Source: Elusimicrobiota bacterium (GTDB lineage: Bacteria > Elusimicrobiota > Elusimicrobia > Elusimicrobiales > UBA9959). Taken from it: DNA of 64,000 nt. A program made the position numbers and the translations under genes. The DNA is taken from positions 6,889 to 70,888 of the forward strand of contig WOVA01000002.1 of the NCBI GenBank assembly GCA_009773155.1, given 5' to 3'. The notes under the pieces are model-generated. The model searched no databases. It worked only from the letters and a program-made list of their open reading frames with translations, and was not told where the DNA came from. Positions 4,072-17,540 of the stretch are shown here, one piece after another (the first letter of the stretch is position 1; each line of letters starts with the position of its first letter).

Positions 4072-4701
4072 ATGGCCAGGTTCTACGAGCGCGAGGACGA
4101 GCTGGAGAACGAGCTCAACCGGGGAGCCCTTTGGGCCATCACCTACGGCGACCTGATGAGCTACCTCATGATCTTCTTCATGATCCTCTTCGCTTTCTAC
4201 AGTTCCAAGAACATCTCCGCCCAGTTCAGCATGCAGAGCCTGGAGGACACTTTCGGCAAGGACACCGAGACCACCTCGATGCTGTTCTCCAAGCACGGCA
4301 TACAGCAGATAGCGCAGGTCGAGATCTCGGCCAACAAGATAAATATCAATTTTTCCGAGCCGATACTCTTCACCCCCGGCAGCGACATCCTGCGGGAGCA
4401 GTCGAAGCCGCATCTGAAGCGGCTGGCCAAGGTCTTCAGCGACCTGCCCAACCCGATACAGATAGAGGGGCACACCGACGCCCGGCCGCTGGGCAGGGGC
4501 GCCAAGTTCAGGTCCAACTGGGAGCTTTCGGCGGCCCGGGCCTTCTCCGTGCTGAAGTTCATGGTGGAGCAGGGAGTGGCCCCCGAGAAGCTCTCGGCCG
4601 TGGGCTACGGCGAGTTCAAGCCGATAAGGTCCAACGAGACGCCGGAGGGCCGCTCCTCCAACAGGCGCATAGAGATAAACATCATCCGCCACGAGATCTG
4701 A
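4072..4701 (+). CDS. motB: MotB-family stator protein with OmpA-like peptidoglycan-binding domain
   Basis: 209 aa. The single TM helix has the conserved Asp (WAITYGDLMSYLMIFFMILF). The C-terminal OmpA_C-like part reads IEGHTDARP...NWELSAARA...GYGEFKP...NRRIEI. Starts 3 nt after motA. Confidence 0.8.
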   Translation: MARFYEREDELENELNRGALWAITYGDLMSYLMIFFMILFAFYSSKNISAQFSMQSLEDTFGKDTETTSMLFSKHGIQQIAQVEISANKININFSEPILFTPGSDILREQSKPHLKRLAKVFSDLPNPIQIEGHTDARPLGRGAKFRSNWELSAARAFSVLKFMVEQGVAPEKLSAVGYGEFKPIRSNETPEGRSSNRRIEINIIRHEI

Positions 4702-4708
4702 GCCGGCC

Positions 4709-6802
4709 ATGAAACTTACCACCCGATTCTTCCTGATACTGCTGGGAATAGCCGTGTTCCCGCTGCTGGTGTCCGTCGGGTGGAACGTCTACCAGTACCG
4801 CGGCAGCATCGCCGGCGTCTTCAGCCTGCACAGGACGGTCTCTTCGCTGGCCGCCTCCAACATGGAGGAATGGCTGGCCAGCGTCAATCGCAGCCTCGCT
4901 TTTCTCTACACCGTAGAGCATCCCCTCCAGAAGAAGAACATAGACGAAACGGCCCTTATAAAAGAGGCGGTCGCCGTCAACTCGGAGATCATGGCGCTGA
5001 GCTTCCTCGCCTCGGACGGCTCCGAGCTCTTCAAGCTGCAGAGCGAGAACGTCAAAAGCAAAGCCCACCTTACGACTTTCACCCCGGAGCTGGCGGACAA
5101 GGCCCGCAACGCGGCCACTATACAGATGGGGGAAGTGATCTGCGCGGAGGGGCAGCCTTTCTTCCCCCTCGCCTACCCGCTGATAGACTCGCGCGTCGTC
5201 ATCTTCCACTTTTCGCTGGAGAAGCTCTGGGGCAAGATGGGAGAGATGCGCACCGGCGAGAGCGGCCGGGTGATAATACTGGACAAGCAGGGCGTGCCGC
5301 TGCCGTGCCAGGGGATCGATCCCAGGTCGATAGATTCCGAAGCCGTCCGCCGGACTTTCAAGATCAGCGCCAAGATCGACCGCATGCCCGCCATGAAGAT
5401 AGACAGGGAGCGTTTCGCCGGCGCCTACGCCGCCACCGAGAAGCTCCCGTGGGTGGCGGTCTCGCTGCAGAGCCACGACGAGATCTACGGGGCCCAGCGC
5501 CGCTCCATAATCCTGTTCTCCGTCTTCACGCTCATCTCCGCGGTCACCACCGTCATAGTCGTGCTGCTGATCTCGCGCCGCATCATCGCCCCGATAAACA
5601 ACATGGTGAACGGCGTAAAGAAGTTCCTCAAGGACCAGCGCCTGGACAAAGTGATACCCGCCGAAGGCTGGCCGGAGATAAAGAACCTGGTCGGGATCCT
5701 CAACCGCATGATGCTGGAGCTCCAGGCCTACCGCGCCTTTCAGCTCAACCAGATAATGGAGGAGAAGAACAAGGCCCAGGCGCTCATTGACACCATCCCC
5801 GACGGAGTGCTGCTGCTCGACGACCGCGGCACGCTGATCTACTCCAACCAGCTGGCGCTCAGCCTGCTCGGCCTGGGCCGCAATCCCTCGGGGGCGGTGC
5901 TGCCCAAGTCCATACGCGGCGACGCCTTCCGCGAGAAGTTCCAGGAACTGCTGGCCTCCAAAGAGAAGTACGCACGCGACGAGGTGGAGGCCCTCCTGGA
6001 GGGGACCTCCCCGCCCGTACTCAAGAATTACCGCGTCCTGGCTGCGCAGTTCATGCAGGCCACGCTCAAGCGTCCGGGACGGGTGATCATCATCCGCGAC
6101 ATCACCAACGAGAAGGAGCTGGAGAAGGTCAAGGAAGACTTCTTCCATATGATCACGCACGACATGCGCGCGCCGCTCTCGACCATACAGGGCTACGTTG
6201 AGCTGCTGATGAAGAAGCTGCCGCCCAATCCCGGCACCGATAAGTATTTCCAGAGCATGCTCTACTCCTCCCGCCGGCTGCGCGGCATGATAGACGACAT
6301 CCTCAACACCACCAAGCTGCAGCGCGGCACCATGACGCTGCAGCTGGACACGATCTCGGCCGCCGAACTGGTCACCCGCGTTAAGGAGAACCACGACCCG
6401 GTGGCCGTGCCCAAGAAGATAACCCTGGCGGCCGCCCCGTCCCCGGAGAACATAGAGTTCAACGGCGACCGGACGCTGCTGGAGCGCGTCATAACCAATC
6501 TGATGGGCAACGCGCTGAAGTTCACCCCCCCGGGCGGCAAAATAACGCTCGGCTGCTCGCAGGACGCCGATAAGGTCTTTTTCTGGGTGGAAGACACCGG
6601 CCCCGGCATACCGGAGGATAAACGCAAGGCCATCTTCGAGAAATATTCGCAGATGGAGGAGCATAAGAGCCAGGGCTTCGGCCTGGGCCTGGCGATGTGC
6701 AAGATGACGGTGGAGCTGCACAAGGGCGACATCTGGGTGGAATCCGAGGTGGGCAAGGGTTCCAAGTTCATATTTACCGTCGCGAAAGGCATAACTCAAT
6801 AG
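4709..6802 (+). CDS. sensor histidine kinase (2 TM with periplasmic sensor domain, HAMP, PAS, HisKA, HATPase)
   Basis: H-box HMITHDMRAPLSTIQGY, N-box GNALKFTPPGG, G1 DTGPGIP, G2 GFGLGLAMC. Two TM segments flank a ~250-aa extracytoplasmic region. Confidence 0.9.
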   Translation: MKLTTRFFLILLGIAVFPLLVSVGWNVYQYRGSIAGVFSLHRTVSSLAASNMEEWLASVNRSLAFLYTVEHPLQKKNIDETALIKEAVAVNSEIMALSFLASDGSELFKLQSENVKSKAHLTTFTPELADKARNAATIQMGEVICAEGQPFFPLAYPLIDSRVVIFHFSLEKLWGKMGEMRTGESGRVIILDKQGVPLPCQGIDPRSIDSEAVRRTFKISAKIDRMPAMKIDRERFAGAYAATEKLPWVAVSLQSHDEIYGAQRRSIILFSVFTLISAVTTVIVVLLISRRIIAPINNMVNGVKKFLKDQRLDKVIPAEGWPEIKNLVGILNRMMLELQAYRAFQLNQIMEEKNKAQALIDTIPDGVLLLDDRGTLIYSNQLALSLLGLGRNPSGAVLPKSIRGDAFREKFQELLASKEKYARDEVEALLEGTSPPVLKNYRVLAAQFMQATLKRPGRVIIIRDITNEKELEKVKEDFFHMITHDMRAPLSTIQGYVELLMKKLPPNPGTDKYFQSMLYSSRRLRGMIDDILNTTKLQRGTMTLQLDTISAAELVTRVKENHDPVAVPKKITLAAAPSPENIEFNGDRTLLERVITNLMGNALKFTPPGGKITLGCSQDADKVFFWVEDTGPGIPEDKRKAIFEKYSQMEEHKSQGFGLGLAMCKMTVELHKGDIWVESEVGKGSKFIFTVAKGITQ

Positions 6803-6819
6803 CGGAGGAGAGGGAGACC

Positions 6820-7200
6820 ATGGCGCTGATACTTATAGTGGACGACAACGACGAATTCCGGGGGATGATCGCCGACTACTTCGGCGAGCTCGGCTACAGG
6901 ATAGCGATGGCGATGAACGGCGCGGAGGGCCTGGCCCGGGCCAGGGAACTCAAGCCGGACCTGATAATCTGCGACGTGATGATGCCCGACGTCGGCGGCA
7001 TAGAGGTGCTGCGCGGCCTTCAGGCCGAAGATGACACCCGTTCCATCCCGGTGCTGGTCATGACCGGCACCTTCTTCGACAAGCAGATGAGCGAGCTTTT
7101 CCGGCAGGAATCCAACTGCCGCGAGTTCATGAGCAAGACCACTGAACTGGCCTACGTGCAGAAGAAGGTGGAGTCCCTGCTCGGCGGGGCCGGGAAGTGA
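6820..7200 (+). CDS. single-domain (CheY-like) response regulator
   Basis: ILIVDDND, DLIICDVMMPDVGG, VLVMTG and FMSK are all present, so the receiver is canonical. Start placed at ATG 6820 behind GGAGAGGGAG. The upstream part of track ORF 6697-7200 overlaps the kinase 3' end. Confidence 0.85.
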   Translation: MALILIVDDNDEFRGMIADYFGELGYRIAMAMNGAEGLARARELKPDLIICDVMMPDVGGIEVLRGLQAEDDTRSIPVLVMTGTFFDKQMSELFRQESNCREFMSKTTELAYVQKKVESLLGGAGK

Positions 7201-7565
7201 CTCCTCCCCTGGTGCTCGTCGCCGACGACGAGCCCGATTATCTCGAGATCGCCTCGCGGCTGCTGGAGGAGGCCGGGCTGCGCGCCGCCCGGGCCGCCAC
7301 CGGCGGCGAATGCCTCGCCGCCGCCGCCGCGGAGAAGCCGGGCCTTATAGTTCTGGACATAGGCCTGCCCGACATGAGCGGCCTGGACGTTCTCAAGTCC
7401 CTCAAGTCGGACCCGGCCCTTAAGGAAGTCCCCGTCCTGCTTTTCACCGTGCGCTCGGAACTGGATTATGTCTCGGCCGGGCTGGCGGCCGGCGCGGCCG
7501 GCTATGTCATAAAGCCTTTCCGTCCCGAAGATTTCATAAAGAGAGTGAGGTCCTTCTTTGGCTAA
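7197..7565 (+). CDS. single-domain (CheY-like) response regulator
   Basis: LVLVADDEPD, LIVLDIGLPDMSG, LLFT and VIKPF motifs. GTG start overlaps the preceding stop (GTGA). Confidence 0.85.
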   Translation: MTPPLVLVADDEPDYLEIASRLLEEAGLRAARAATGGECLAAAAAEKPGLIVLDIGLPDMSGLDVLKSLKSDPALKEVPVLLFTVRSELDYVSAGLAAGAAGYVIKPFRPEDFIKRVRSFFG

Positions 7566-8313
7566 GACACCAGCGGCCGGCCGGCCCTCCGCCGCCGTCG
7601 TCTCGTCCGGCCCCGCCGGGGAGCGGATGCTCAAGGCCCTGGAACGGGCCGGCTTCGCCGCGGCATCTTTTCCCGCCGCGGGACCGTTCATCTCCTCGCT
7701 CGCCTCGGCGGTGCCGGACCTGGCCGCCGTAGACACTGAGCTGCCGGACCTGGGCGGGGCCGACCTGGCGCTGGCCCTGCGCCGCAATCCCCCCACTGCC
7801 GGCGTCACGCTGATAATATTTTCAGCCGCGCCGCGCGTCCCGGCTGAAGTCGTTACCGGGCTGGACAGCGGGGCCGACGATTATCTCAGCCCTCTCCCCC
7901 CTCCCGAAGAACTGGATGCCCGGCTGCGCAATCTTCTGGAGCGCGGCCTGCGCGGGCGCGCCGGGCCGGCATCAGCGGGGGACTCCATGCGGCAGGGTGT
8001 CCCCGTTCCGCCCGTTATCAGGGCCGGCGGCCTGGAAGTGGACCTCTCGGCGCGCACGGTGACCGCCTGCGGCAAGGCCGCGGACCTGACCAGCCTGGAA
8101 TTCGACCTGCTCGTTTTTTTTCTGAACCACCCCAACCGCGTCATAGCGCGCGGAACGCTGATGGAGGCCCTCTGGAAGGACCCCGCTTCGGCGTCCCAGC
8201 GTGCCGTGGACAAGCGTGTGGAGGCGCTGCGCGCCAAACTGGGCGGCTTCGCGGCGCGCATAGAGACGGTGTTCGGAATGGGATACCTGTTGAGGCTCAA
8301 CGACGAATGCTGA
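7558..8313 (+). CDS. OmpR/PhoB-family winged-helix regulator with degenerate receiver domain
   Basis: C-terminal Trans_reg_C pattern (LEVDLSARTV...LTSLEFDLLVFFLNHPNRVIARGTLMEALW...VDKRVEALRAKL...ETVFGMGYLL). The receiver keeps the phospho-Asp position (AAVDTELPD) but reads VVSS where VVDD is expected and YLSPLP where Y.tKPf is expected. TTG start overlaps the upstream gene by 8 nt. Confidence 0.75.
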   Translation: MAKTPAAGRPSAAVVSSGPAGERMLKALERAGFAAASFPAAGPFISSLASAVPDLAAVDTELPDLGGADLALALRRNPPTAGVTLIIFSAAPRVPAEVVTGLDSGADDYLSPLPPPEELDARLRNLLERGLRGRAGPASAGDSMRQGVPVPPVIRAGGLEVDLSARTVTACGKAADLTSLEFDLLVFFLNHPNRVIARGTLMEALWKDPASASQRAVDKRVEALRAKLGGFAARIETVFGMGYLLRLNDEC

Positions 8314-8325
8314 GACCGCCGGGTC

Positions 8326-10386
8326 TCAGGCTTTCTTAGGCGGCGGAGGCGGCGGCGGAGGAGGTGCCTGGTCCTTCGGGGCTTCCTTGGCTTTGGGCTC
8401 TTCCGACTGAGGCAGTGCGCCCCAGTCCAGGGGCAGGATGAACATCGCGGCCGCCCCTCTTTCCTTCCTGTTAGATACCGTGAACTCCCCGCCGTGTCTT
8501 TCCACTATCCTGTGGGCCGTGGCCAGGCCTATGCCGGTGCCGTCCTTCTGGGAAGTATTGAAGGGCAGGTAGAGGCGGTCCATGACTTCGGCCGGGAAAC
8601 CGTGGCCGTTGTCCTCGAAGATCACCACGGCCTTGGAACGGTCCTCGGTGCCGGTCATCGTCATCTTGAGCGAGGTGCCGGGCGGCAGGTTCTCGTAGGC
8701 GTTCTTTATCACCTGGTAGAAGGCCAGGCGCAGCTTCTCCCTGTCCATTTTGATCCAGGCGGACGGCAGTATGACCTGCCGCGAGAGCGAAAGTTTCTTG
8801 TTGCGGAAAGGCCGCTCCCAGCCGTCCAGCAGGCCGTCGAGCATGGCGCGCAGCTCGCCGCGTTCCAGGTGCAGCGGCGTCTCGTCGATATAGGCCTGCC
8901 AGCCTTTCATCAGCGTTACGGAGGAAAGCATGGCCTTGAGCGACGGGGCCAGGTTCTTGCGGGCGGCGGCGGGCAGGCGGTAGCTGAAGAGGTTGAGGTC
9001 TCCCGATATCTTTGCGAGGCCCTTTATTACCTTTTCGGTGAAATCGAACTGTTCGCGCTTGATCAGGCCGCTCAGGCGCATATTGCGGCGCTTGAGGTCC
9101 TCGACCTCCTCCTGCAGGCGGTCTATCCTGCCCAGTTCCTGCTTAAGCAGCGCTATCGAGGCGTCGCGGTCGCGGAGTTTCTTGATGGTTTCGCGCAGAT
9201 TGTCGTCGGCCTTGCGCAGGGTCTCGCGCAGCGATTCTCCCTCGGCGAGGAGCGTGTTGATCCTGGCCGCGGAGCGCTTGTTGATCTCTTTTTCCAGCGA
9301 AAGACCGGTCTTTGTCTCGCGGAGCAGGCCGTTGAGCTTCTCGGTCTCGGCGCGCGAATCCCGCAGCTGGTCCGCCAGGGACTTCTCCTTCTCCAGCGCC
9401 TCCTCCAGGCCGCGGCGCAGCTCCGCCGCTTTCGACTGCAGCTCGAAGACCTTCCGCACCGCGCCCGCGAAATTAGCCTTCTGCTCCTCGGCGGAGAGGC
9501 GGGCGTCGCGCAGCTCCATCCGCAGGGCATGGGCCGCCGCTTCCCCTTCGGCGGCAAGTGTTTCCAGGCCTTCTTCCTTCTCGCGCAGCGACCCGGCTTC
9601 GGCCCGCGCCGCGGCCAGCGCTTTCCGGGCCTCGTCCAGGGCGGCCGCTGCTTCGGCCAGCGCCAGGCCGGAAGTCCTGCCCGTCTCGCGGGCGGCGGAC
9701 AGTTCTCCGGCCAGCTCGTCGGCCCGGGCGGAGGCCCCGGCCAGCGACTTCTCGAGAGAGTCTTTCTCCGATCTGATAGCGGCTATTTCTTCGTCGAGCG
9801 CCGCGGCTTCGGTTGTCCTGGTCTCCAGTTCGGCGGCCAGTCTGGCGGTCTCCGCTCCGGCGTCGGCCAGCTCGCGCAGCAGGTCCTCGGGCGCCACGGT
9901 TCCACCCCGGCCGGCGGCCGCGGCTTCGAGCGCCTCGGCCAGCGGTTTCATGGCGGCTAACGCCGTGAGGCGGGCCTCCAGGGCACCGGCCCTCGCCGAA
10001 GTCCCGTTCAGATTTTTTTCAAGCGCCGCCTTTTCCCCCTCGAGCAGGGCGGCGCGCTCCTTTTCGGAATCCAGCCCGGCGGCCAGTTTTTCCGCGCGCT
10101 CCGCCAGGGCGGCGTGTCCTTCGAGCAGGCCGGAGGCCCGCTTCACCAGGTCCTCCCTGGCCGCGGCGTCGGCGCGCATCTTCTCTATCTCCGCCTTGAG
10201 GGCGGATTCGCGCGAGCGCGCTTCCTGCAGCGCCCGTTCCAGGTGGGCCAGCCGCGAATTAAGTTCCCCCGCCCTGCGCGCGGCCTCCGCGTAGTTCTGC
10301 GAAAGGCGCCCGGCCTCCTCCTGGGCGCTCTTCATCGCGTCCCAGAGGAAGCCTATCTCGCGGCCGGCGGGGTTTTCGCCGCTCAT
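8326..10386 (-). CDS. coiled-coil protein with C-terminal histidine-kinase-like ATPase domain, no H-box histidine, poly-Pro tail
   Basis: Start placed at MSGENPAG (ATG 10386), which overlaps the upstream stop as ATGA. About 440 aa are A/E/L/R-rich heptad-like sequence. It then has N-box VIKNAYEN, G1 EDNGHGF and G2 GTGIGLATA. The H-box position reads FDFTEKVIKGL. The protein ends APPPPPPPPPKKA. Confidence 0.75.
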   Translation of the reverse strand: MSGENPAGREIGFLWDAMKSAQEEAGRLSQNYAEAARRAGELNSRLAHLERALQEARSRESALKAEIEKMRADAAAREDLVKRASGLLEGHAALAERAEKLAAGLDSEKERAALLEGEKAALEKNLNGTSARAGALEARLTALAAMKPLAEALEAAAAGRGGTVAPEDLLRELADAGAETARLAAELETRTTEAAALDEEIAAIRSEKDSLEKSLAGASARADELAGELSAARETGRTSGLALAEAAAALDEARKALAAARAEAGSLREKEEGLETLAAEGEAAAHALRMELRDARLSAEEQKANFAGAVRKVFELQSKAAELRRGLEEALEKEKSLADQLRDSRAETEKLNGLLRETKTGLSLEKEINKRSAARINTLLAEGESLRETLRKADDNLRETIKKLRDRDASIALLKQELGRIDRLQEEVEDLKRRNMRLSGLIKREQFDFTEKVIKGLAKISGDLNLFSYRLPAAARKNLAPSLKAMLSSVTLMKGWQAYIDETPLHLERGELRAMLDGLLDGWERPFRNKKLSLSRQVILPSAWIKMDREKLRLAFYQVIKNAYENLPPGTSLKMTMTGTEDRSKAVVIFEDNGHGFPAEVMDRLYLPFNTSQKDGTGIGLATAHRIVERHGGEFTVSNRKERGAAAMFILPLDWGALPQSEEPKAKEAPKDQAPPPPPPPPPKKA

Positions 10387-11837
10387 CAGGCGCTCCTCCC
10401 CGCCGCGATGTCTATGCGGTTCTTGGAGGCGAGGTCCATCGCGGTCGCGATGACCTTGGCGCGCGCCAGGATGACCTTCTCCTTCTCCTGGCGTGCGGAA
10501 AGCATGTCGCGGACTATCGCGCGCACGTCCTCGGGGAAGACCTTCATGACGCTGCGGGTATGGCCCTCGTCCATGCCCTGGAGGGCCACGGCCCAGTCGG
10601 CGTAAGGCAGCGAGAGCACCAGGGGCTTGAGGTTCTTCTCGTCCATGGAGCAGAGCTCGTCGAAAGTGATCAGCGCGCCGCGCAGCCGGTCGAACGAGGC
10701 CTGGTCCACGCCCTTGAGGCCGGAGAGCAGCTCCTCGCGTTCGGCGGGGTCGACAAGGCTGAGTATGCGGCCCAGCTTTTCGCTGCCCTTGAGCGATTTT
10801 TCTATGCGCAGGCGGAGGTTGTTCTCGACCTCCATGAGCCTTTCCGGCTCCACCTGCCGGAGCGCCAGCATGCGGCGGGTGACCTCCTCGCGGCGCGACG
10901 GGGGCAGGTTGAGCAGCAGCTTGGAGGAGATATGGGGCTTGCGGTCGGCGAGCTGGGCTATCACTATGGCCGCGTCCTCCTCGGCTTCGTCGGCGAGTAT
11001 CTCGCTTATCTCCTCGGCGGGCATCTTCTCGATGAACGAGAAGGAATCCTGGCTCTCGAGCAGCCGCAGGCCGCCGCCTCCGGCGTCTATGACCTCGGCG
11101 AACTCGCCGCCCTCTCCCTCCGCCTCTCCGCCGCCGGCCTGCGCTCCCGCCCCCGGAGCGGCCGAGCCGGCCTGCGAGGTCAGCGCGCTCATGCGGGCGT
11201 AGTCGAGCAGGCTGGTGAAAAGGCGCGAGGCCAGCAGGTAGGCGAAGACCACCAGCGAGGCCAGAGAAAGGGTGAGCAGAAAGGAGCCCAGCAGGATGCG
11301 GTGTATGTCCGGCGCGTCGAAGAACTCCTTCCACCAGGGCAGCATGTCGGCGCGCAGCAGGGAGATGGAGTCGCCGCGCTTCTCGTCGAGGCGCAGTATG
11401 TCGGTGACCAGGAGGCGGATGGCGTTGGCGCGGGCCTCGGGGATATTGCGGTCGAAGACCAGCGAGACGGTGACGCGCTTCATGCGGAACTGGCTGGTGT
11501 GGGTGGTCTCGGCCTTCTGCTGCTGGATGTACTCGTTGGTCTTCTCCATGACCGTGATCTGGGAGAAGCCGGGCAGCTGCATGAAATTCCCGGGGTCCGA
11601 GGCGCCGGATTCGCTCATGGCGGTGTAGGCGGCCTCGCCCTCTACGCGGACGAAGACCTTGCTCCTGCCGCGGCCCAGCAGCTGCTCCAGCAGGAGGGCC
11701 ACGTCCTGCTGCATGCGGGCCGACAGCTCAGCCTCTTCGGCCGCGGGCGTGACGGCGGGCGCCGCGGGGGCCTGAGCCTGCGCGGCCGCCTGCGAGAGCG
11801 GGAAAAATACGGAGAATAGCAGCGTCGCGATGGTCAT
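10386..11837 (-). CDS. FliF C-terminal ring-domain / TM / FliG middle+C-terminal domain fusion protein
   Basis: 483 aa. Signal peptide MTIATLLFSVFFPLSQAAAQA. The periplasmic segment has the FliF RBM3-like pattern (LLEQLLGRGRSKVFVRVEGEA...KRVTVSLVFD...LDEKRGDSISLL). TM helix ILLGSFLLTLSLASLVVFAYLLA. After a G/A/E linker comes a FliG_M-like part (EDAAIVIAQLADRKPHISSKLLLNLPPSRREEVTRRMLAL) and a FliG_C-like part (ITFDELCSMDEKNLKPLVLSLPYADWAVALQGMDEGHTRSVMKVFPEDVRAIVRDML...ARAKVIATAMDLASKNRIDI). Confidence 0.75.
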   Translation of the reverse strand: MTIATLLFSVFFPLSQAAAQAQAPAAPAVTPAAEEAELSARMQQDVALLLEQLLGRGRSKVFVRVEGEAAYTAMSESGASDPGNFMQLPGFSQITVMEKTNEYIQQQKAETTHTSQFRMKRVTVSLVFDRNIPEARANAIRLLVTDILRLDEKRGDSISLLRADMLPWWKEFFDAPDIHRILLGSFLLTLSLASLVVFAYLLASRLFTSLLDYARMSALTSQAGSAAPGAGAQAGGGEAEGEGGEFAEVIDAGGGGLRLLESQDSFSFIEKMPAEEISEILADEAEEDAAIVIAQLADRKPHISSKLLLNLPPSRREEVTRRMLALRQVEPERLMEVENNLRLRIEKSLKGSEKLGRILSLVDPAEREELLSGLKGVDQASFDRLRGALITFDELCSMDEKNLKPLVLSLPYADWAVALQGMDEGHTRSVMKVFPEDVRAIVRDMLSARQEKEKVILARAKVIATAMDLASKNRIDIAAGRSA

Positions 11838-11910
11838 AGACGGGGAGGCGCCGGCCTCCCTTTCATTGTAAATAATAGGAGATACGGGTTACAAAGTTGT
11901 TTCGTGAGGG

Positions 11911-13329
11911 TTAATTATTTAAGGGGAACTCGGCGCCGAAGACCGACCCGCCTCGCGCGCCGGGCCGGTAGAAGACTTTTCCGCTGTGCAGCCCGGCGAT
12001 GCGGCGGCACAGGGAGAGGCCCAGCCCGGTTCCCCCGGCCGCGGCGCCGGGAGCCCTGTAGAAGGCCTCGAAAAGCCTGCTCTCCGCCCCGGGCGGGACG
12101 CCCGGGCCGGTATCGGCCACTTCGAAGACGAGCGAGCCCTCCCGGCGGAGGACTTTTACCTCGACGGAGCCTCCCTTAGGGGTGAACTTGAGGGCGTTGG
12201 CGAGGAAATTAGTCAGCATATGGGCCGCCAGCTCCCTGTCCAGCCCGGCCGGCAGGCTTTCCTCCCCGGAATATTCCAGCCTGAGCCCCAGGTCGGCGGC
12301 GCGGGGCTTGAAGAAATCGGTCACATCGCGCGCCAGCGCCGCGGCGTCCTCGGGGCCCGGGTTGAACGGCATCTCCCCCCGCTCTATGCGGGCCAGGTCC
12401 AGCAGGCCGGTCACAAAAGCGGACAGCCGCGAGACGTTCTCCCTGATGCGCCGGTAATCGCCCTTCTCCGTCTCGCCCGCGCCGGGGCGGCGCTCGAGCA
12501 GCGCCAGGCGGCTCTCTATCGCGCCCAGAGGCGAGCGCAGTTCGTGCGTCACCGAAGAGACGAAGGCTTTCTTCATGTTCTCCAGTTCCAGCAGCTTGGC
12601 CGACATCGTATCGAAAGCGGCGCCGAAGGCGGCTATCTCGTCGGAGCCGCCTATCGAGGCCCTGGAGCCGAAGCGACCGGCACCGATATCGGCGGCCAGC
12701 GCCGAGAGCCGGCCCAGCCTGCGCGAGATGCCGGCCGAGAGCAGGAAGGCCAGCACGCCGGCCAGCGCCGCCGACAGCGCCGCCGCATGCGCGGTATTGC
12801 GCCAGAGCGCCATCAGAAGGTCCGACCGCTCCTTCTCCAGATAGTCCGCGGAGAAGTCCAGCCGGACGGCGGCGCCCTGCGCGGAGGCCCGCCGGATCAG
12901 GGCGGCATTCGCCGCAGTCGGTGGCCGGGCGGCGTAGCGCCCGGCACCTGCGGAGCCGGAGGCTCGTTGTTCCGCCGGGAGCTCTGCGACCGGCCGCGTC
13001 AGCCGGCGCCCGGGGGCGGCGGCGCCCGGCGGAGGCTTCCCCCGGCGTATCTCCGTTTCGGCGCCGCTCTTCCAGGTGAGGAAAGTCGCGGCTATATCGG
13101 GCCTGGAGCGGCGCAGATCGGCCAGGTAGTCCACCAGCATCAGCTGGTCGCCGGCCAGGGCGGCTTCCGCCGCCATGCGCTCCGCGCCGGCCGCGGCCGC
13201 CGCGATACGCTCCTCCTGTACGCGGTAGATCTCGTCCCTGCCGAAGCGGTAGAAAAAATAGCCGGCCGCCAGCGCGGCCGAAAGCGCCGCGGCCAGGAGC
13301 GCCAGGTTCAGCTTGGTCCTTAACGTCAT
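11911..13329 (-). CDS. sensor histidine kinase (TM, HAMP, HisKA, HATPase)
   Basis: H-box VSSVTHELRSPLGAIE, N-box NFLANALKFTPKGG, G1 DTGPGVP, G2 GTGLGLSLC. Confidence 0.9.
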   Translation of the reverse strand: MTLRTKLNLALLAAALSAALAAGYFFYRFGRDEIYRVQEERIAAAAAGAERMAAEAALAGDQLMLVDYLADLRRSRPDIAATFLTWKSGAETEIRRGKPPPGAAAPGRRLTRPVAELPAEQRASGSAGAGRYAARPPTAANAALIRRASAQGAAVRLDFSADYLEKERSDLLMALWRNTAHAAALSAALAGVLAFLLSAGISRRLGRLSALAADIGAGRFGSRASIGGSDEIAAFGAAFDTMSAKLLELENMKKAFVSSVTHELRSPLGAIESRLALLERRPGAGETEKGDYRRIRENVSRLSAFVTGLLDLARIERGEMPFNPGPEDAAALARDVTDFFKPRAADLGLRLEYSGEESLPAGLDRELAAHMLTNFLANALKFTPKGGSVEVKVLRREGSLVFEVADTGPGVPPGAESRLFEAFYRAPGAAAGGTGLGLSLCRRIAGLHSGKVFYRPGARGGSVFGAEFPLNN

Positions 13330-13332
13330 CGG

Positions 13333-15309
13333 CTATCTCGAGAACCTTATTATCCTCTCCAGGGCCTTCTTGGCCTGCGCGTTCTCCGGGTCGAGCACCA
13401 GTATGCGGCGGAAGATGTCGGCCGCCTTGCCGTACTCGCCCTTGGCGTAGAAGTCCGCGCCGGTCTGGTAGAGCTTCTCTATCTCGCGCGGCGCCGTCGC
13501 GGGCTTCTTTTCCTCGCGCTCAGCCTCGGGCACCGGCGGCACCCAGGTGGCCCCGCCGCTCTTGCGGCGCGCCTCCGAGACCATTTTGGTCAGGGCGGAC
13601 TTCTCGCTGGGCTCGGTCTCCGCCTTGAGCGCCTTGTCCCACCAGCCGGCGGCCTGCGCGTAGTTGCCCATCATGTAATGGCAGGAGCCGGCCTTCTTCA
13701 TCGCGTCGCGGTTGTCCGGTTCGTACTCCAGCGCGTCCTCGAGCTTGCGCAGCGCGTCGTCGTAGTTCTTCTGCGCGTAGAGGATCTCGGATTCCTTTAT
13801 CCTGTGCAGCGCCAGGCCGCCCTTGAAATCAGCGGGCACCCTCTCGGCCTTGAGGTGCGTCATGTCCTCGACGCCCTCCAGGAAGCGGCTGAGCGCGGCG
13901 TCGTCGCGGTTAAGACTGTGGGCGAAGGAGATCTCGCGGACCGCGCGGCTGTCCTGGCCCTTGAGGAAGTGGGTGATGCCCTGCGAGAGGCGGTTCTCCC
14001 ATTTCTCCTTTTCGGACTCGCCCGGCATGGCCGGGTAGAACTGGCCGGTCAGGTTAAGGCGGCGGCTGAGATTTATCAGCGAGGCGTCGGGCAGCAGGTC
14101 CTTGGCCTCCTCCATCAGCGTCCTGGCGGCGGTCTGGTATTTCTCGTCCATTATGAGACGTTTCACGCCAGTCAGCCGCGGGTTCTCCAGGCTGGCCAGT
14201 TCGCGGGTGCTCTTGTACTCGGAAACCTCGGCGAGGCGCTGGTACTGCTCCAGCAGGTCCTTCTCGTACTGCTCCTCTACGGTGGGGCCGCCGAAATGGT
14301 AGCTCATCGCCATACGGTGGGTTCCCGCCGTATCCTTTACGGTCCCCAGCGGCAGGATGAAGGCGTAGTCGAAGCCTATCTTGTTTATCTTGTAGGAGAG
14401 GCCGGCCGTGACCTGGCGGAAATCCCTGGTCCCGGCGCCCAGCGAGCCGCGCACGCTGATCTCGCCCTTGTCGAGCGTGGGAAATACCCGCTCCGCCGCC
14501 ACGATCATATCCCTGTCCATCTCGCCCGTAGGCCCCTCGCTGAAGCGGAGCTCGGAGGAAAGCGTCATCCAGAGCGCGCGGTAGGTGGCCCCGATCGCCG
14601 TGCGCATGGGCAGCTTGTCCTCAGCCCCGTCCCCGAAAGCGACGTTGGGCTGCAGAACGCTTTTGAGAGCCAGCCCGGCCGAATATCTCTTGCCGAGAGA
14701 GTAGATGAAGCCAAGGTCCAGGTCCATCGCGGAGGCGGCATTGGCGCCTATCAGGACGGAGTCCACCTGGCCGGTAGCCAGGAACCCGTCCATCGCGTCA
14801 TAAGTCTCTTCCAGGCGCTCGAAGGAGCGGGAGAGGAGCTTGAACGAGGCGCCGGCCGAAAGGTTCTCCAGCATCGTGTTGGGAGCGAAGGCGTAGCCGT
14901 AGGAGAGCTGCATCGTGCGCTCGGCGTAGACGCCGCTGAGGCTGAACTGGTTCCAGAGCCCGCCCATCACGCCCAGTTTGCCGCCGCGCAGCGGCACGGC
15001 CATGGCCATGCCCGTCATGCCCAGGCTGGAGCCGTCGCTCAGGCCGGTATGGAGCAGGGAGTGGGAGGCCAGGAACTTTACCCGCTCCAGACCGGCCAGG
15101 CCGGCCGGGTTGTAATGCACCGCGGAGACGTCGTCGGCCGCGGCCGTGAAAGCGTTGCCCAGACCGGGCGCCCGCGCGCCGAAGCCCAGGTCCTCGAAGG
15201 CGGAGAAGGCCGGACCCGCGGACAGCAGAGCCAGCAGCGCCGTCAGTCCCCGCAAAGCGAGGACAAGCGCCGCCGTCCCTCCGATCGCGAGTCCTTTTAC
15301 CCTGGTCAT
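13333..15309 (-). CDS. outer-membrane beta-barrel (PorV / PorP-SprF / UPF0164-like) fused to C-terminal TPR domain
   Basis: Start at MTRVKGLAIGG (signal peptide ending AFS-AFE). The N-terminal motif GARAPGLGNAFTAAADDVSAVHYNPAGLAGL is typical of PorV-like barrels. About 400 aa show alternating beta-strand patterns and a terminal aromatic (MSYHF). About 240 aa follow with TPR-like repeats (YAQKNYDDALRKLEDALEYEPDN, YAKGEYGKAADIFRRILVLDPEN). Confidence 0.65.
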   Translation of the reverse strand: MTRVKGLAIGGTAALVLALRGLTALLALLSAGPAFSAFEDLGFGARAPGLGNAFTAAADDVSAVHYNPAGLAGLERVKFLASHSLLHTGLSDGSSLGMTGMAMAVPLRGGKLGVMGGLWNQFSLSGVYAERTMQLSYGYAFAPNTMLENLSAGASFKLLSRSFERLEETYDAMDGFLATGQVDSVLIGANAASAMDLDLGFIYSLGKRYSAGLALKSVLQPNVAFGDGAEDKLPMRTAIGATYRALWMTLSSELRFSEGPTGEMDRDMIVAAERVFPTLDKGEISVRGSLGAGTRDFRQVTAGLSYKINKIGFDYAFILPLGTVKDTAGTHRMAMSYHFGGPTVEEQYEKDLLEQYQRLAEVSEYKSTRELASLENPRLTGVKRLIMDEKYQTAARTLMEEAKDLLPDASLINLSRRLNLTGQFYPAMPGESEKEKWENRLSQGITHFLKGQDSRAVREISFAHSLNRDDAALSRFLEGVEDMTHLKAERVPADFKGGLALHRIKESEILYAQKNYDDALRKLEDALEYEPDNRDAMKKAGSCHYMMGNYAQAAGWWDKALKAETEPSEKSALTKMVSEARRKSGGATWVPPVPEAEREEKKPATAPREIEKLYQTGADFYAKGEYGKAADIFRRILVLDPENAQAKKALERIIRFSR

Positions 15310-15323
15310 ATAAGCGTCCGCCG

Positions 15324-15716
15324 TTACCTGATCACAACGACCGTGCCCTTTATGACGGTCTCGCCGACCGTTATCTGATAGATGTAAACGCCGCCGGCCG
15401 CGCGCATCCCCAGGTTGGGGTTCCATTCCATTTTGTAGTAACTGTCCGTCAGGGAGATCTCCTTCAGCGTCATGTCCGCCACCTTCCGGCCCTTGAGGTC
15501 GAAGATCTCCCCTTTTACCAGTAACTCGGAGGGATTGTGGCACTGGAAGACGAAAGTGTCGTTCCTGGAGTCGCCGTTCGGGGTCACCAGGCGGCTGAGC
15601 GCGCGCGAACTTCCGACGGTGACGGCGGCCATCAGCGCTGGGGCGAGCAGCAGCGCAGCGGCCAGCGATATGGCCGCGCTGCCGACTCCCTTATTGAGTA
15701 GTTCCGGTTTTTTCAT
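15324..15716 (-). CDS. small secreted protein made of one CHU_C / T9SS type-B-like (FlgD-Ig-like) C-terminal domain
   Basis: Start MKKPELL with a signal-like hydrophobic stretch. Then LVTPNGDSRNDTFVF...GEIFDLKGRKVA...GGVYIYQITVGETVIKGTVVVIR. The module is shared with the C-terminus of the 15880-17514 product. Confidence 0.7.
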   Translation of the reverse strand: MKKPELLNKGVGSAAISLAAALLLAPALMAAVTVGSSRALSRLVTPNGDSRNDTFVFQCHNPSELLVKGEIFDLKGRKVADMTLKEISLTDSYYKMEWNPNLGMRAAGGVYIYQITVGETVIKGTVVVIR

Positions 15717-15879: not shown

Positions 15880-17514
15880 ATGCGCGTTCTCATTTTAATC
15901 TCCCTCCTCCTGTGCGCCGGCCCTTCCTGGGCCGGGCGCTACGAGTCGGCCTCCTTCGTAGAGACCGACGGGCGCCTGGGCTGGGGCGGAGCGCTGGGGG
16001 AATCCAACGCTTTCAGGTCCTTTTCTTCGGTGGATGGTCTGTCAGTCTCGACTTCAGTTTCACCGGGAAATCCGCCGGATCATTACGGCTATTCCTCGCG
16101 TTCCGGCGCCTTCGCCTATTTCCCGCAGCCGGCCGCGGTAAGCGACCTGGCCACGCTCACCGTTTCCAGCGATTCGCTTAAGCTCACCTGGACCGCTCCC
16201 GAGGAGACCTGGTTCAGCCGCGCCGGCAGCGCCTCCCGTTACGTTCTCAAATATTCCCTGTCCGCCCCTATAAATACGGAGGCGGAATTCCGGAGCGCGA
16301 CGGAAGTCCCCCAACTCCCCCAGCCCTGGAGCCCTCTGGCCGCCGGCACCACGGAAACCTTCATCCTGAACGGTTTCAACCCCGGCGCTACTTACTACTT
16401 CGCTCTCAGGTCGTATAACTCCGAGACCGTCGCTTCCGAACTTTCCAACAGGGCCGCGGCTTTCGCGCTGACGCCACTGCCTCCCATGAATTTCCAGGCA
16501 ACCGCCGGGCCTAATGCTTACTCCCTTTCCTGGATCCCCCCCGCCGGTTATTCGACCCGTATAGAGTTCAACGACAGGTTCAGCCCCAACTATCCCTACG
16601 AGGTCAAGGTTTATCAGGTCTTCCGGGCCACCACCCCAACCACCGATAATTGGTCTTTCAGGGCCGAAGTTTCCTCCTATACCCTCAGTTTCGTGGACGA
16701 CCAGATATCGGCCGGGGTGGAATACTATTATCGCGTGAGCGCGGTGAACCAGGCCGGCCTTTCCAGGCCTTCCTATGTGCGCGGCGGCCTCTCCAATGCC
16801 GGCTATTTTCTGGGCCCCGACGGGTCGAGTCTCATGGAGATACCGCAGACAGCCATGGCTCCTTTCTCCGGTCCCGCCTCAGACCAGATGGACTTCTACA
16901 CCATAGAGGTCGCTTCCAATACCGACGAAATAGGAGGCCGCGTGATAAAGAGCGTGGATTTCGCGGCTTATCGCGGCGGCCTCACGCGCGACGACTCCTT
17001 CAAACTCTCCGCCCCGGGTTCCATGCGTCTTTATTATTCCAAAGCAGGCGACGCGTTCGTCCCTTCGGCGACCGTGCCGGATTACAAGCGGCTGAGCGTC
17101 TTCTTTCACAACGGGCGGCGCTGGCTGCAGCTCTACGGCAAGGTGGACCAGCCCAATTCGCGGGTCACGCTTGAGACTACGATGCTGGGGCGCTACCAGC
17201 TCCGCTCGACCGAAAGGAGCGGCGGTTTCGCCGCCGACGCCTCGGGCCTCTCCAACCGCCTGATAACGCCGAACGGCGACGGCAAAAATGATACGATGGT
17301 CTTCGTTTTCGACGATCCGGCCGGGACTTCCGTCAAGGGAACGATATTCGACCTCAAGGGCGCCAAGGTGGCGTCCATGACGCCCGGGCCGGTCGGGAAT
17401 TCGCTGGTCTGGGACCCGCGCGCCGAAGGCCGCAGCGTGCCTGGCGGAGTATATATTTACCAGATAGAGTCCGGCGGCGAAGTGTTCAACGGTACCGCCG
17501 TGGTGATCAGGTGA
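15880..17514 (+). CDS. secreted fibronectin-III-repeat protein with CHU_C / T9SS type-B-like C-terminal domain
   Basis: Start MRVLILISLLLCAGPSWAG (signal peptide). FN3-like units are present (LKLTWTAPEE...YYFALRSYN; LSWIPP...YYYRVSAVNQAG). The C-terminus reads LITPNGDGKNDTMVFVF...GTIFDLKGAKVA...GGVYIYQIESGGEVFNGTAVVIR. Confidence 0.75.
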   Translation: MRVLILISLLLCAGPSWAGRYESASFVETDGRLGWGGALGESNAFRSFSSVDGLSVSTSVSPGNPPDHYGYSSRSGAFAYFPQPAAVSDLATLTVSSDSLKLTWTAPEETWFSRAGSASRYVLKYSLSAPINTEAEFRSATEVPQLPQPWSPLAAGTTETFILNGFNPGATYYFALRSYNSETVASELSNRAAAFALTPLPPMNFQATAGPNAYSLSWIPPAGYSTRIEFNDRFSPNYPYEVKVYQVFRATTPTTDNWSFRAEVSSYTLSFVDDQISAGVEYYYRVSAVNQAGLSRPSYVRGGLSNAGYFLGPDGSSLMEIPQTAMAPFSGPASDQMDFYTIEVASNTDEIGGRVIKSVDFAAYRGGLTRDDSFKLSAPGSMRLYYSKAGDAFVPSATVPDYKRLSVFFHNGRRWLQLYGKVDQPNSRVTLETTMLGRYQLRSTERSGGFAADASGLSNRLITPNGDGKNDTMVFVFDDPAGTSVKGTIFDLKGAKVASMTPGPVGNSLVWDPRAEGRSVPGGVYIYQIESGGEVFNGTAVVIR

Positions 17515-17540
17515 TTTACAGCGATCTTCGGAGGCGACTT

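Follow-up and report, generated by a model that had tools for sequence, protein, structure and literature searches.

A FliF-FliG fusion protein encoded near a MotAB stator in a conserved Elusimicrobia gene block: a candidate single-chain rotor outside a flagellum

The window analysed in this study, a 64,000-nucleotide stretch of an Elusimicrobiota genome, contains a block of 13 genes (14 with the response regulator RR0) that includes a gene for a natural FliF-FliG fusion protein and, 5.7 kb from it, motA and motB (Table 1). The kinase-like gene is always found directly downstream of the fusion gene, its start codon overlaps the fusion-gene stop (TGATG), and the two genes are translationally coupled. 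The phospho-acceptor histidine of this kinase-like protein is present in none of the 38 sequences that cover the region. At the RR0/RR1 position two single-domain response regulators are also called in two other loci (L001 and L003). The CHU_C matches of the 130-aa secreted protein and the fn3 protein both fall just below the gathering threshold (GA) of 27, and the 1128-aa secreted protein, which has no Pfam or PDB match, lies within the conserved block, its membership of the system being uncertain. It had been claimed that motAB lies nearby without a flagellar operon, and this is what we find: no other flagellar gene was detected among about 50 window ORFs scanned, nor any in the 20-kb stretches examined around the Elusimicrobia loci.

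Table 1. Genes of the conserved block and parts of the fusion protein, with positions in the window
Feature	Position	Strand	Basis
motA, flagellar-type stator A subunit	3292..4068	+	Pfam MotA_ExbB
motB, plug and OmpA-like peptidoglycan-binding domain	4072..4701	+	Pfam MotB_plug, OmpA
Sensor histidine kinase HK1, dCache-PAS-HisKA-HATPase	4709..6802	+	Pfam; syntenic
Response regulator RR0, single-domain (CheY-like)	6820..7200	+	ORF and sequence
Response regulator RR1, single-domain	7197..7565	+	Pfam Response_reg 1e-26
Response regulator RR2, OmpR-type	7558..8313	+	Pfam Response_reg and Trans_reg_C
686-aa coiled-coil protein, HK-like DHp/HATPase core	8326..10386	-	Pfam HATPase_c; PDB ZraS 4e-13
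FliF(RBM3)-TM-FliG(MC) fusion gene	10386..11837	-	ATG start, 483 aa; three Pfam domains above GA
Fusion, hydrophobic segment, aa 1-22	11772..11837	-	Sequence reading; helix 3-19 in models
Fusion, periplasmic FliF RBM3, aa 31-163	11349..11747	-	AF2, HMMs, Foldseek
Fusion, single TM helix, aa 181-205	11223..11297	-	Hydropathy scan; long helix 176-222 in model
Fusion, disordered Gly/Ala/Glu-rich linker, aa 223-261	11055..11171	-	pLDDT 40-43
Fusion, FliG middle domain (ARM_M), aa 275-347	10797..11015	-	Pfam FliG_M 2.2e-8
Fusion, FliG C-terminal domain, aa 374-477	10407..10718	-	Pfam FliG_C 2.8e-11
Fusion, torque helix, aa 436-447	10497-10532	-	E. coli FliG alignment
HAMP histidine kinase HK2	11911..13329	-	Pfam, synteny; directly upstream of fusion gene
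PorP/SprF-like outer-membrane barrel with C-terminal TPR repeats	13333..15309	-	Pfam PorP_SprF 36.2 bits vs 22.3; TPR by Pfam and PDB
130-aa secreted protein, hardly more than CHU_C-like C-terminal domain	15324..15716	-	CHU_C 24.6 bits; syntenic
fn3 protein with CHU_C-like C-terminal domain	15880..17514	+	Pfam fn3 2e-11, CHU_C 26.9 bits; syntenic
1128-aa repetitive secreted protein	17511..20897	+	Syntenic, 37-70% identity

The original prediction was that this 483-aa protein joins a FliF ring domain to FliG_M and FliG_C, behind a signal peptide, a periplasmic segment of about 150 aa, one TM helix and a linker, and that RBM1, RBM2 and FliG_N are absent. Pfam, a family HMM and fold comparison agree on this architecture, the third-codon-position GC content of the ORF (GC3 = 0.91) is that usual for real genes of the window, and a confident AF2 model (pLDDT 84.3) matches solved structures of both FliG-MC and FliF RBM3. 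The identity of the C-terminal half is well supported by FliG_C (44.1 bits against a GA of 23.3), FliG_M (34.6 against 25) and a PDB sequence match to T. maritima FliG-MC (1lkv, E 1e-8, over aa 265-478). In Foldseek comparisons the modelled FliG_C resembles 1qc7 (TM 0.77-0.89) and superposes on 8ucs_H, a FliG bound to MotAB (TM 0.80-0.86). MgtE_N, named beforehand as an assignment of this half that would refute the prediction, stays below its cut-off (23.0 versus 25.9), and so does FliG_N (15.5 versus 25), whose match overlaps FliG_M; RBM1, RBM2 and FliG_N are absent by Pfam and in the AF2 models.

The FliF call, the other point on which the prediction could have been refuted but was upheld, rests on weaker scores, as YscJ_FliF_C is barely above its threshold over aa 98-160 (24.9 bits against 23.8). 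We trust it because of independent HMM, Pfam and structural evidence. An HMM of the N-terminal part of the fusion family matches E. coli FliF 233-278 and 400-427 colinearly, and one built from 89 diverse relatives matches FliF 236-444 as a single domain at 51 bits; YscJ_FliF_C itself is matched by 70 of these 89 relatives, the strongest match being 6.6e-12 and several running over the entire length. With two AF2 models, FliF RBM3/collar rings (6sd1, 6scn, 8z4g) rank directly behind the FliG matches in Foldseek. The domain is folded as alpha-beta followed, after a short collar-like insert (aa 71-115), by beta-alpha-beta, and its pLDDT is 92-98 in the core and about 52 in the insert. The sequence landmarks named in the prediction also hold up, since GRGRSKVFVRVEGEA aligns with the RBM3a strand and EKRGDSISL with EKRGDSLNV of E. 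coli FliF, and the RGD motif is almost invariant among the 89 relatives. The N-terminal segment is probably a Sec signal peptide with an AxA-type site, as judged from its sequence, and a K/R n-region is present in relatives; an uncleaved anchor is not excluded. The TM helix is equivalent to FliF TM2 and, like it, follows a Trp-rich segment, here a conserved PWW motif with invariant W169. The linker, whose length and sequence differ between the 34 orthologues compared, stands in place of the FliF C-terminal tail and FliG_N.

The fusion thus differs from canonical FliF and FliG in being one polypeptide instead of two and in lacking TM1, RBM1 and RBM2, so that it has no export-gate seat. Its FliG part retains the Gly hinge (G351) and an MFXF-like (M/L)(V/I)TF hinge in addition to FliG_M and the FliG_C fold, but motif mapping shows that the EHPQR FliM-binding motif of FliG_M is not conserved, and neither FliM nor FliN is encoded nearby. 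A torque-helix region had also been proposed. The helix FPEDVRAIVRDML does align with the E. coli FliG torque helix MSQRAADILRDDL, but its charges do not follow the canonical pattern. Only one of the five canonical charges is kept, the acidic D288 equivalent (D444, conserved); the equivalents of R281 and R297 are acidic (D437 and E), and those of K264 and D289 are lost. At about 20% identity such alignments are not free of risk, although three methods agree. The stator is of the PomA/MotA type: all ten PDB sequence matches of MotA are PomA or MotA (best 3.5e-34) and none is ExbB or TolQ. The equivalents of MotA P173 and P222 are present in 30 of 30 sequences and that of MotB D32 in 33 of 33, R90 is replaced only conservatively if at all (K or R, 30/30), and E98 corresponds to uncharged Q, S or T throughout (30/30). 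MotB is 73-84% identical across the order, with a dN/dS of 0.02-0.03. The ion-pathway residues are intact. The R281/E98 partner pair is altered on both sides, and with one in five canonical rotor charges kept the electrostatic rotor-stator interface would need to work differently.

A database survey for the same architecture had been suggested, and profile search reveals a much larger FliF-FliG fusion family, apparently undescribed. Of six remote relatives sampled, five (L051, L053, L055, L056, L057) have MotAB adjoining the fusion gene, and in L054 MotAB adjoins a FliG-TPR protein; at one remote locus (L058) no motAB occurs within 10 kb. L053-L056 and L059 each have a PorP/TPR homologue immediately upstream of the fusion gene. 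Natural FliF-FliG fusions are not unprecedented, because Chlamydiaceae have a different one, a protein of about 330 aa that crosses the membrane with two TM helices. It combines an RBM2-like domain with a further RBM-like domain that has no detectable homologues, and of FliG it contains the FliG_M region alone; it sits among injectisome-related genes, and no MotAB partnership is described in the study reporting it (Bergeron 2016, PMC4768692). In both cases, bacteria presumed to lack flagella have a truncated FliF covalently linked to a cytoplasmic domain resembling FliG. However, the window protein keeps RBM3 rather than RBM2, has one TM helix after the signal peptide and contains the torque-generating FliG_C besides FliG_M. 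In Salmonella and Vibrio, full-length FliF and FliG fused by engineering still assemble rings from a single chain (e.g. PMC6079021, PMC10941966, PMC11481574), in keeping with the claim that such fusions work in Salmonella, and this adds to the plausibility of a natural single-chain rotor. Unlike the window protein, these laboratory constructs have all FliF RBMs and FliG_N and act inside a complete flagellum.

On balance, we consider it somewhat probable that the block encodes a rotor ring built from single-chain subunits, driven by MotAB, coupled to envelope and surface proteins and wired to two-component signalling, with an unknown output. The fusion protein would be a rotor subunit cut from the flagellar motor core, which may oligomerise into a ring with its RBM3/collar domain on the periplasmic side and FliG_M and FliG_C as a cytoplasmic torque ring, the flexible linker taking the place of the non-covalent contact by which the FliF tail and FliG_N are otherwise joined. 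Ion flow through peptidoglycan-anchored MotA5B2 units would then push the torque helix and turn the ring. Its periplasmic face could be linked to outer-membrane or surface proteins by way of the TPR domain in the PorP-like protein, for movement, anchoring or export of adhesin-like cargo, while the kinases and CheY-like regulators might control the motor or read its state. The term "minimal rotor" remains an inference, since neither rotation, ring formation nor output has been shown. For the output side we use Bacteroidota type 9 secretion and gliding as a working analogy, a system which combines a GldLM/PorLM motor and PorP/SprF with type-B CTD cargo (PMC9143113, as cited in PMC12204202). Both have an ion-driven inner-membrane motor of the MotAB superfamily that is encoded alongside, or works upon, outer-membrane PorP/SprF-type barrels and surface proteins bearing CHU_C-type C-terminal domains, but the window system has a true MotAB and a FliG-type rotor instead of GldL/GldM and belongs to Elusimicrobiota. 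The analogy is limited by marginal CHU_C matches, and the T9SS core genes (SprA, GldK, GldN, PorV, PorU) were not searched. If the rotor reading is true, a rotor-stator pair is used independently of the flagellum, its motor core being reused for another job.

With its two kinases, the one kinase-like protein and its three response regulators, the invariant block would suit a signalling device no less than a mechanical one. Together, MotAB and the FliF-FliG ring could sense assembly state, ion-motive force or load and gate the kinases and the His-less kinase-like protein, the response regulators then changing gene expression, e.g. of the adjacent surface proteins, without sustained rotation doing external work. 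The translational coupling noted above favours such a platform, as do relatives whose rotor protein itself has a fused kinase core (P0191, P0165, P0206); these kinase-FliF-FliG triple fusions are Rosetta-stone evidence of kinase-rotor contact and count for the rotor reading as well. A precedent is the C. jejuni kinase FlgS, which senses the FliF/FliG ring (PMC3760246). It resembles our case in tying a histidine kinase to MS ring and rotor, whereas FlgS is a separate soluble protein serving a checkpoint within flagellar biogenesis. We nevertheless regard a pure signalling role as unlikely. It is not obvious why a sensor should need an ion pathway kept intact and a stator anchored to peptidoglycan under the constraint seen in motB, nor why it should need an outer-membrane/TPR partner and surface cargo genes conserved across distant lineages, and the remote clusters L053 and L057 contain MotAB, the fusion gene and TPR/surface proteins without a kinase.

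The proposed non-flagellar rotor must also be weighed against the possibility that the protein belongs, as MS-ring/rotor, to a reduced but genuine flagellum whose other genes lie elsewhere in the genome. In L051, from Margulisiibacteriota, a 480-aa family member heads a real flagellar operon with MotAB, FliK, an FlgE-like protein, FliM, FliN, FliPQR, FlhB and FlhA, which suggests that the short fusion architecture can work as an MS-ring/rotor. However, the L051 member shares only about 20% identity with the window protein, its locus lacks the PorP/TPR partner of the non-flagellar clusters, and the window family has lost the FliM-binding motif and, without RBM1 and RBM2, any obvious seat for an export gate. 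The window locus contains no rod, hook, filament or export genes, and no other flagellar gene turned up among the roughly 50 window ORFs scanned or in the 20 kb around the related loci. Free-living Elusimicrobiota are reported to lack flagellar structural genes, yet to keep motAB, flbD and fliG in a role described as "unclear" (bioRxiv 10.1101/2022.07.08.499144). The absence of flagella rests on this one preprint and on the 64-kb window only; we consider a reduced flagellum improbable.

A decaying remnant of a lost flagellum, without present function, might be suspected, since relatives of the organism are reported to be non-flagellated and rotor genes occur without filament genes in 11% of non-motile species (PMC12199754). 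This very improbable reading is already contradicted by our selection analysis. The fusion ORF is intact in all 45 loci fetched, some of which are cut by contig ends, and is under purifying selection, its dN/dS (0.10-0.12) equalling that of purB (0.11-0.12); 59 columns are invariant among 34 orthologues at 44-54% identity, the operon structure is conserved, the fusion gene is translationally coupled to its neighbour, and the partner stator is under even stronger constraint. An anti-phage defence of the Zorya kind, built on a MotAB-like motor, is the least credible, because MotB matches PADLOC ZorB models (best 4.4e-25) only as any MotB would, MotA has flagellar PomA and MotA as its closest matches and fits no ZorA model, the fusion, kinases and neighbours match nothing in PADLOC except coiled-coil noise, and the locus, flanked by housekeeping genes, is a stable part of the core genome rather than a variable island. 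All 45 loci come from Elusimicrobia MAGs, and in every one long enough to be judged the order of the block is identical. Gene order is conserved generally in this order of bacteria, in which ribBA likewise stays adjacent, so part of this synteny could be phylogenetic inertia; the block order persists where the flanking purAB has been lost.

The fusion gene begins with ATG and encodes exactly 483 amino acids, and its GC3 of 0.91 is as in the real genes of the window (64% GC). Long reading frames that overlap it, including 10560..11819 (+), were rejected as high-GC artefacts, and the frame 8326..11334 (-) was rejected as a run-on of the true downstream gene. Pfam profiles place YscJ_FliF_C (PF08345) at aa 98-160 (24.9 bits vs GA 23.8), FliG_M at aa 275-347 (34.6 bits vs cut-off 25) and FliG_C at aa 374-477 (44.1 bits vs cut-off 23.3). 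FliG_N, the domain that binds FliF, stays below its Pfam cut-off (15.5 bits vs GA 25) with a match that overlaps FliG_M, and the AF2 model leaves no space for it between the TM helix and FliG_M. No Pfam match to PF01514 (YscJ_FliF; RBM1/RBM2, SctJ-like) is found in the protein even at E<=10, and only about 10 residues separate the signal peptide from the first RBM3 helix. In order, the fusion protein has a signal peptide, a FliF RBM3 whose collar is short, a helix of TM2 type, a linker, FliG_M and FliG_C; it lacks RBM1, RBM2, the FliF tail and FliG_N. Since its match to the NCBIfam FliG equivalog TIGR00207 (39.9 bits) falls far under the cut-off of 226.7, the protein is FliG-like and no orthodox FliG; the best sequence match in the PDB is T. 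maritima FliG-MC (1lkv, 1e-8, aa 265-478). The original prediction had described this architecture, a natural fusion of a FliF ring domain to the FliG middle and C-terminal domains, and its structural description proves correct in every point by profiles, family HMMs and AF2/Foldseek, with PF08345, PF14841 and PF01706 all matched over their cut-offs. Two outcomes would have refuted it, a C-terminal half belonging to MgtE_N without FliG_C and an N-terminal half without FliF likeness, and neither was met: MgtE_N (PF03448) was rejected at 23.0 bits vs GA 25.9 while FliG_C passes, and the N-terminal half is matched by PF08345, family HMMs and Foldseek alike. Lipoprotein anchoring of the N-terminus was also rejected; a Cys occurs in the h-region of some orthologues but not in that of the window protein, and the context is no lipobox.

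The YscJ_FliF_C call by itself is weak, and we regard it as real because family HMMs, the wider family and AF2/Foldseek agree on it. An N-terminal HMM (225 residues, 34 orthologues) matches E. coli FliF 233-278 and 400-427, which are colinear and correspond to the two RBM3 halves, and a second HMM, made for this region from 89 diverse relatives, aligns with E. coli FliF 236-444 as a single domain (51 bits), beginning at the first RBM3 helix and continuing past the collar region (LPG vs YPG) and KRGDS up to the Trp-rich segment before TM2. Among these 89 relatives FliG_C is found in all, FliG_M in 85 and PF08345 independently in 70 (best 6.6e-12, several over the full profile). The AF2 monomer from the 89-sequence alignment has a pLDDT of 84.3; a first model from 34 close orthologues was mediocre (68.5) and gave the same fold matches. 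In the 89-sequence model, helix 31-54, strand 59-70, insert 71-115, strand 116-129, helix 134-147 and strand 157-163 make up the split alpha-beta / beta-alpha-beta topology of RBM3, in which the collar insert is of low confidence. A long helix (176-222) contains the TM segment (aa 181-205) and leads into a disordered Gly/Ala/Glu linker (223-261) and an all-helical FliG-MC part with a pLDDT of about 95. This covalent disordered linker replaces the FliF tail and the FliG_N interface, whose function would be kept by other means. In Foldseek against the PDB, FliG-MC structures rank top (E about 3e-8; TM 0.77-0.89 for FliG_C), followed by the FliF RBM3/collar rings of Salmonella and Vibrio (E 1e-4 to 2e-3, TM about 0.5) and then by the SctJ proteins PrgK and EscJ; SpoIIIAG appeared with the first model only, at E 0.11.

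The torque helix was mapped onto E. coli FliG by phmmer to T. maritima FliG, by MAFFT with E. coli FliG added and by hmmsearch with the family HMM, all of which agree, on alignments to canonical FliG and MotA of only about 20-30% identity. The original prediction pointed to the charged residues that contact the MotA loop, and their conservation holds only in part. The acidic equivalent of D288 is kept (D444, Asp/Glu in 34/34 orthologues), but the equivalents of R281 and R297 are acidic (D437, Asp/Glu in 33/34; E451, Glu/Asp in 33/34), and K264 and D289 are lost in the 34 orthologues; the helix is charged and conserved in a pattern unlike the canonical one. Nor is the EHPQR FliM-binding motif kept, as the positions of E125, H126, P127 and R160 vary and invariance is limited to a Glu at the Q128 position. 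The hinge Gly G351 shows no variation even in the 89-member superfamily alignment, and the MFXF hinge, in alignments read by eye, is seen as (M/L)(V/I)TF. The motA and motB genes of the window are of flagellar type and have the features of a canonical stator: PomA or MotA accounts for 10/10 PDB sequence matches of MotA (best 3.5e-34), MotB carries a plug and an OmpA-like, peptidoglycan-binding domain, the MotB D32 equivalent is invariant in 33/33 orthologues, and so are the equivalents of MotA P173 and P222 in 30/30. The MotA R90 equivalent is Lys/Arg and the E98 equivalent Gln/Ser/Thr, each in 30/30. In the canonical motor the pairs are MotA R90 with FliG D289 and E98 with R281, according to the part of the source available to us (PMC7564593). 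Judged from these alignments, the basic-stator/acidic-rotor half appears to be kept and the other pair to have changed on both partners, as co-evolving contact surfaces would look, although this is no proof of contact.

Coordinates of the genes around the fusion gene in the window and of features at remote loci
Feature	Position	Strand	Detail
motA	3292-4068	+	
motB	4072-4701	+	
dCache-PAS kinase	4709-6802	+	
CheY-like regulator	6820-7200	+	
CheY-like regulator	7197-7565	+	
OmpR-type regulator		+	
686-aa coiled-coil protein	8326-10386	-	kinase-like catalytic core
Fusion gene	10386-11837	-	FliF(RBM3)-TM-FliG(MC)
Spacer	11838-11910	-	73 nt, AT-rich
HAMP kinase	11911-13329	-	
PorP/SprF-like barrel with TPR repeats	13333-15309	-	PorP_SprF 36.2 bits vs 22.3
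Small CHU_C-like-domain protein	15324-15716	-	CHU_C 24.6 bits vs GA 27
fn3 protein with CHU_C-like tail	15880-17514	+	CHU_C 26.9 bits vs GA 27
1128-aa secreted repeat protein	17511-20897	+	
Flagellar operon, L051 (Candidatus Margulisiibacteriota, GCA_041650635.1)	3096-14538		480-aa FliF(RBM3)-FliG(MC) fusion at its head; MotA, MotB with LysM, FliK, FlgE-like, FliM, FliN, FliP, FliQ, FliR, FlhB, FlhA
Kinase-fused rotor protein P0191	L056:10001-12544		
One motA and two tandem motB after the fusion gene	L057:11501-13849		
Fusion protein P0229	L058:10001-12019		C-terminal TPR repeats

The minus-strand set (15716 to 8326) is convergent to the motAB side, and the fn3 and 1128-aa genes are divergent from the minus-strand operon. 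On the motAB side, a simple GC3-based gene call overlooked the CheY-like gene at 6820-7200, a second single-domain regulator, which brings the response regulators of the motAB operon to three. The start ATG of the 686-aa gene overlaps the fusion gene stop codon (TGATG). Its product has about 430 aa of coiled coil, a DHp-like segment, an intact-looking HATPase_c with the N, G1 and G2 boxes kept (read from sequence) and a poly-Pro/Lys tail; the phospho-acceptor His is absent from 38/38 sequences covering the region. The spacer upstream of the fusion gene contains a sigma-70-like TTGTAA-18-TACAAT and a GGGAGG that lies 17 nt from the ATG, unusually distant, and a promoter of their own is possible for the fusion gene and the kinase-like gene, as far as such motifs can tell. 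The barrel-TPR protein beside two CHU_C-like (type-B CTD-like) proteins represents T9SS-like parts in an Elusimicrobia genome, with the reservation that both CHU_C matches are marginal, just under the Pfam cut-off; PorV, PorP and clearer CHU_C or Por_Secre_tail cargo are found in related loci (L058, L059, L003), and the literature searched held nothing relevant on T9SS in Elusimicrobia. The 1128-aa protein has no Pfam or PDB relative, is found at the same position in all loci with 37-70% identity, and contains repeats with KAGD(T/A/V)MTG(P/S/Q)L-type motifs, which we presume to resemble phage tail-fibre repeats.

Scanning one genome per GTDB species gave 45 loci, which all lie in Elusimicrobia, Elusimicrobiales or Elusimicrobiaceae MAGs, a few of them titled just 'bacterium'. 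Gene set and order are identical in every sufficiently long locus, even where the flanking purAB is lost. The linkage argument within Elusimicrobiales is nevertheless weakened because synteny is generally high in the order, and it is the remote loci that restore much of it. The module set of the window is reproduced around the fusion gene in L055 and L059. In L053 an fn3 protein, a TPR protein, the fusion gene and MotAB are found, and L056 has a 7555-aa laminin-G protein, a small FlgD_ig/Por_Secre_tail protein, a TPR protein, a kinase-fused rotor and MotAB. The Endomicrobiales locus (L057) combines giant fn3/CarboxypepD_reg proteins, the fusion gene, MotA, two MotB and a TPR protein. In L058, PorV and CHU_C cargo lie near the fusion gene and motAB was not found within 10 kb of it; a Roadblock/LC7 (MglB-like) gene is also nearby. 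In L053-L056 the gene immediately upstream of the fusion gene encodes a homologue of the window PorP/TPR protein, and L059 has a Pfam-annotated PorP_SprF/TPR protein two genes upstream; the homologue is missing from the flagellar locus L051.

Beyond these loci, a survey of databases for the same architecture shows a large family that extends outside Elusimicrobiota (profile search, 89 relatives scanned). The family profile gave 3533 matches at E<=1e-3, 756 at E<=1e-10 and 59 at E<=1e-30 among 1.84 billion representative proteins; a metagenome locus scan with a single family protein (P0117) found no match, and a word-indexed search with the profile of the 89 sequences brought back only the same close family, with no gain in taxonomic spread. 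The best 150 matches, fragments of less than about 400 aa set aside, are mostly of 430-850 aa and align continuously, starting inside the periplasmic domain and reaching the C-terminus. Named members belong to Elusimicrobiota, Endomicrobiales and Candidatus Margulisiibacteriota, and one on a short archaeon-binned contig is taken to be mis-binned. Their database labels are 'hypothetical' or 'FliG C-terminal domain-containing'. Extra TPR repeats are found C-terminally in 13/89 relatives, P0229 among them, and HisKA with HATPase_c in 4/89 (P0191, P0165, P0206 and P0186; 788-847 aa). The order in these kinase fusions is HisKA, HATPase_c, TM, FliF_C, TM, FliG_M, FliG_C, that is, the two-TM topology of FliF with the kinase core on the cytoplasmic N-terminus, which is predicted to put a histidine-kinase core on every rotor subunit.

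We consider it rather probable that the locus encodes a flagellum-independent single-chain rotor with a MotAB stator. RBM3 would form a ring in the periplasm, where canonical FliF assembles about 33-34 subunits, FliG-MC would hang from the TM helix and linker under the membrane, and the peptidoglycan-anchored MotAB, its ion pathway intact, would push the torque helix; both ring formation and rotation are inferred, the structure prediction being of a monomer. The periplasmic ring is further inferred to contact the TPR protein, and the kinases, one of which is fused to the rotor in some lineages, the CheY-like regulators and the coiled-coil kinase-like protein may use two-component signalling to control the device or read it out, for which the C. 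jejuni kinase FlgS, dependent on FliF and FliG, sets a precedent (PMC3760246). One relative stands at the head of a true flagellar operon, a hint that the architecture may work as a rotor. In the non-flagellar clusters, the recurrent outer-membrane/TPR protein and the large surface proteins with T9SS-like C-terminal domains point, by inference, to an envelope-spanning device with its output at the cell surface. We speculate, and offer only as a tentative possibility, that the fusion protein, MotAB and the PorP-like/TPR protein form an unrecognised envelope-spanning rotary machine without export gate, rod or filament, which drives movement, anchoring or export of CHU_C-type surface proteins. 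It would be a new gliding, adhesion or secretion motor of Elusimicrobiota and mostly unnamed metagenomic lineages, with kinases in or on the rotor.

That the assembly serves signalling only seems to us unlikely. The kinases and regulators around the fusion gene and the kinase cores fused to some relatives could be read in this way; the same reading has to accommodate the conserved ion-pathway residues of a complete stator. A cryptic reduced flagellum is more improbable still, as the flagellar-operon context is met by the distant L051 member only, and no flagellar genes besides motAB and the fusion (export gate, rod, hook) were found in the about 50 ORFs of the window or in the Elusimicrobia loci, these being windows of <=22 kb and not whole genomes. 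The fusion gene is functional: its dN/dS against three close relatives (88-92% identity) is 0.10-0.12, compared with 0.05-0.06 for motA, 0.02-0.03 for motB and 0.11-0.12 for the housekeeping gene purB, and the 34-sequence alignment (44-54% identity) has 59 invariant columns, which fall in every domain and also in the collar insert. A decaying remnant or a defence system can jointly be given hardly any weight, the pseudogene or remnant reading being rejected by dN/dS, and Zorya or other defence by PADLOC, which gives only a generic likeness of MotB to ZorB and no match to ZorA, ZorC, ZorD or ZorE.

With canonical FliF the fusion protein has in common the PF08345 RBM3/collar, but not TM1, RBM1 or RBM2, and its TM helix after RBM3 is present without the FliG_N-binding tail; with canonical FliG it shares FliG_M and FliG_C, but not FliG_N, EHPQR or a TIGR00207-level score. 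The only natural fusion in the literature searched, apart from engineered ones, is the chlamydial case (PMC4768692), which has an RBM2-type domain, two TM and FliG_M only in about 330 aa, whereas the window protein has RBM3, one TM and FliG_C as well; here the published architecture was compared with our domains, not by direct sequence alignment. Engineered FliF-FliG fusions assemble rings (PMC6079021, PMC10941966, PMC11481574). What is new here is the flagellar rotor-stator pair in single-chain form together with its conserved non-flagellar context, and it would be categorically new if an envelope-spanning machine were confirmed. Why non-flagellated bacteria have flagellar rotor proteins is a recognised puzzle. 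Such proteins occur without filaments in 11% of non-motile species, where another function has been raised as a possibility (PMC12199754), and flagellum-less Elusimicrobiota keep motAB, flbD and fliG in a role called unclear, with no mention of a fused architecture in the portion of that source available (10.1101/2022.07.08.499144). The locus makes the puzzle concrete by offering a one-gene rotor, a dedicated stator and a small fixed partner set. Should the ring rotate, no simpler MotAB-driven rotor would be known, and it would lend itself to structural or single-molecule torque work; the flagellar motor core would then have a second use in evolution, and the ring might model a pre-flagellar or post-flagellar rotary device. 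The L051 relative also suggests that an MS ring without RBM1, RBM2 and FliG_N may be the base of a flagellum, which bears on models of export-gate seating and of FliG templating on the MS ring.

Otherwise the window carries housekeeping genes (purAB, riboflavin synthesis, complex I, plsX, RNase III, trigger factor, ClpP, Lon, acetate kinase), and the stretch 26902-50100 holds ordinary genes unrelated to the finding, namely the nuo operon, a DnaJ/DUF1232 protein, plsX, RNase III, glycosyltransferases and a SpoIID-TPR protein.
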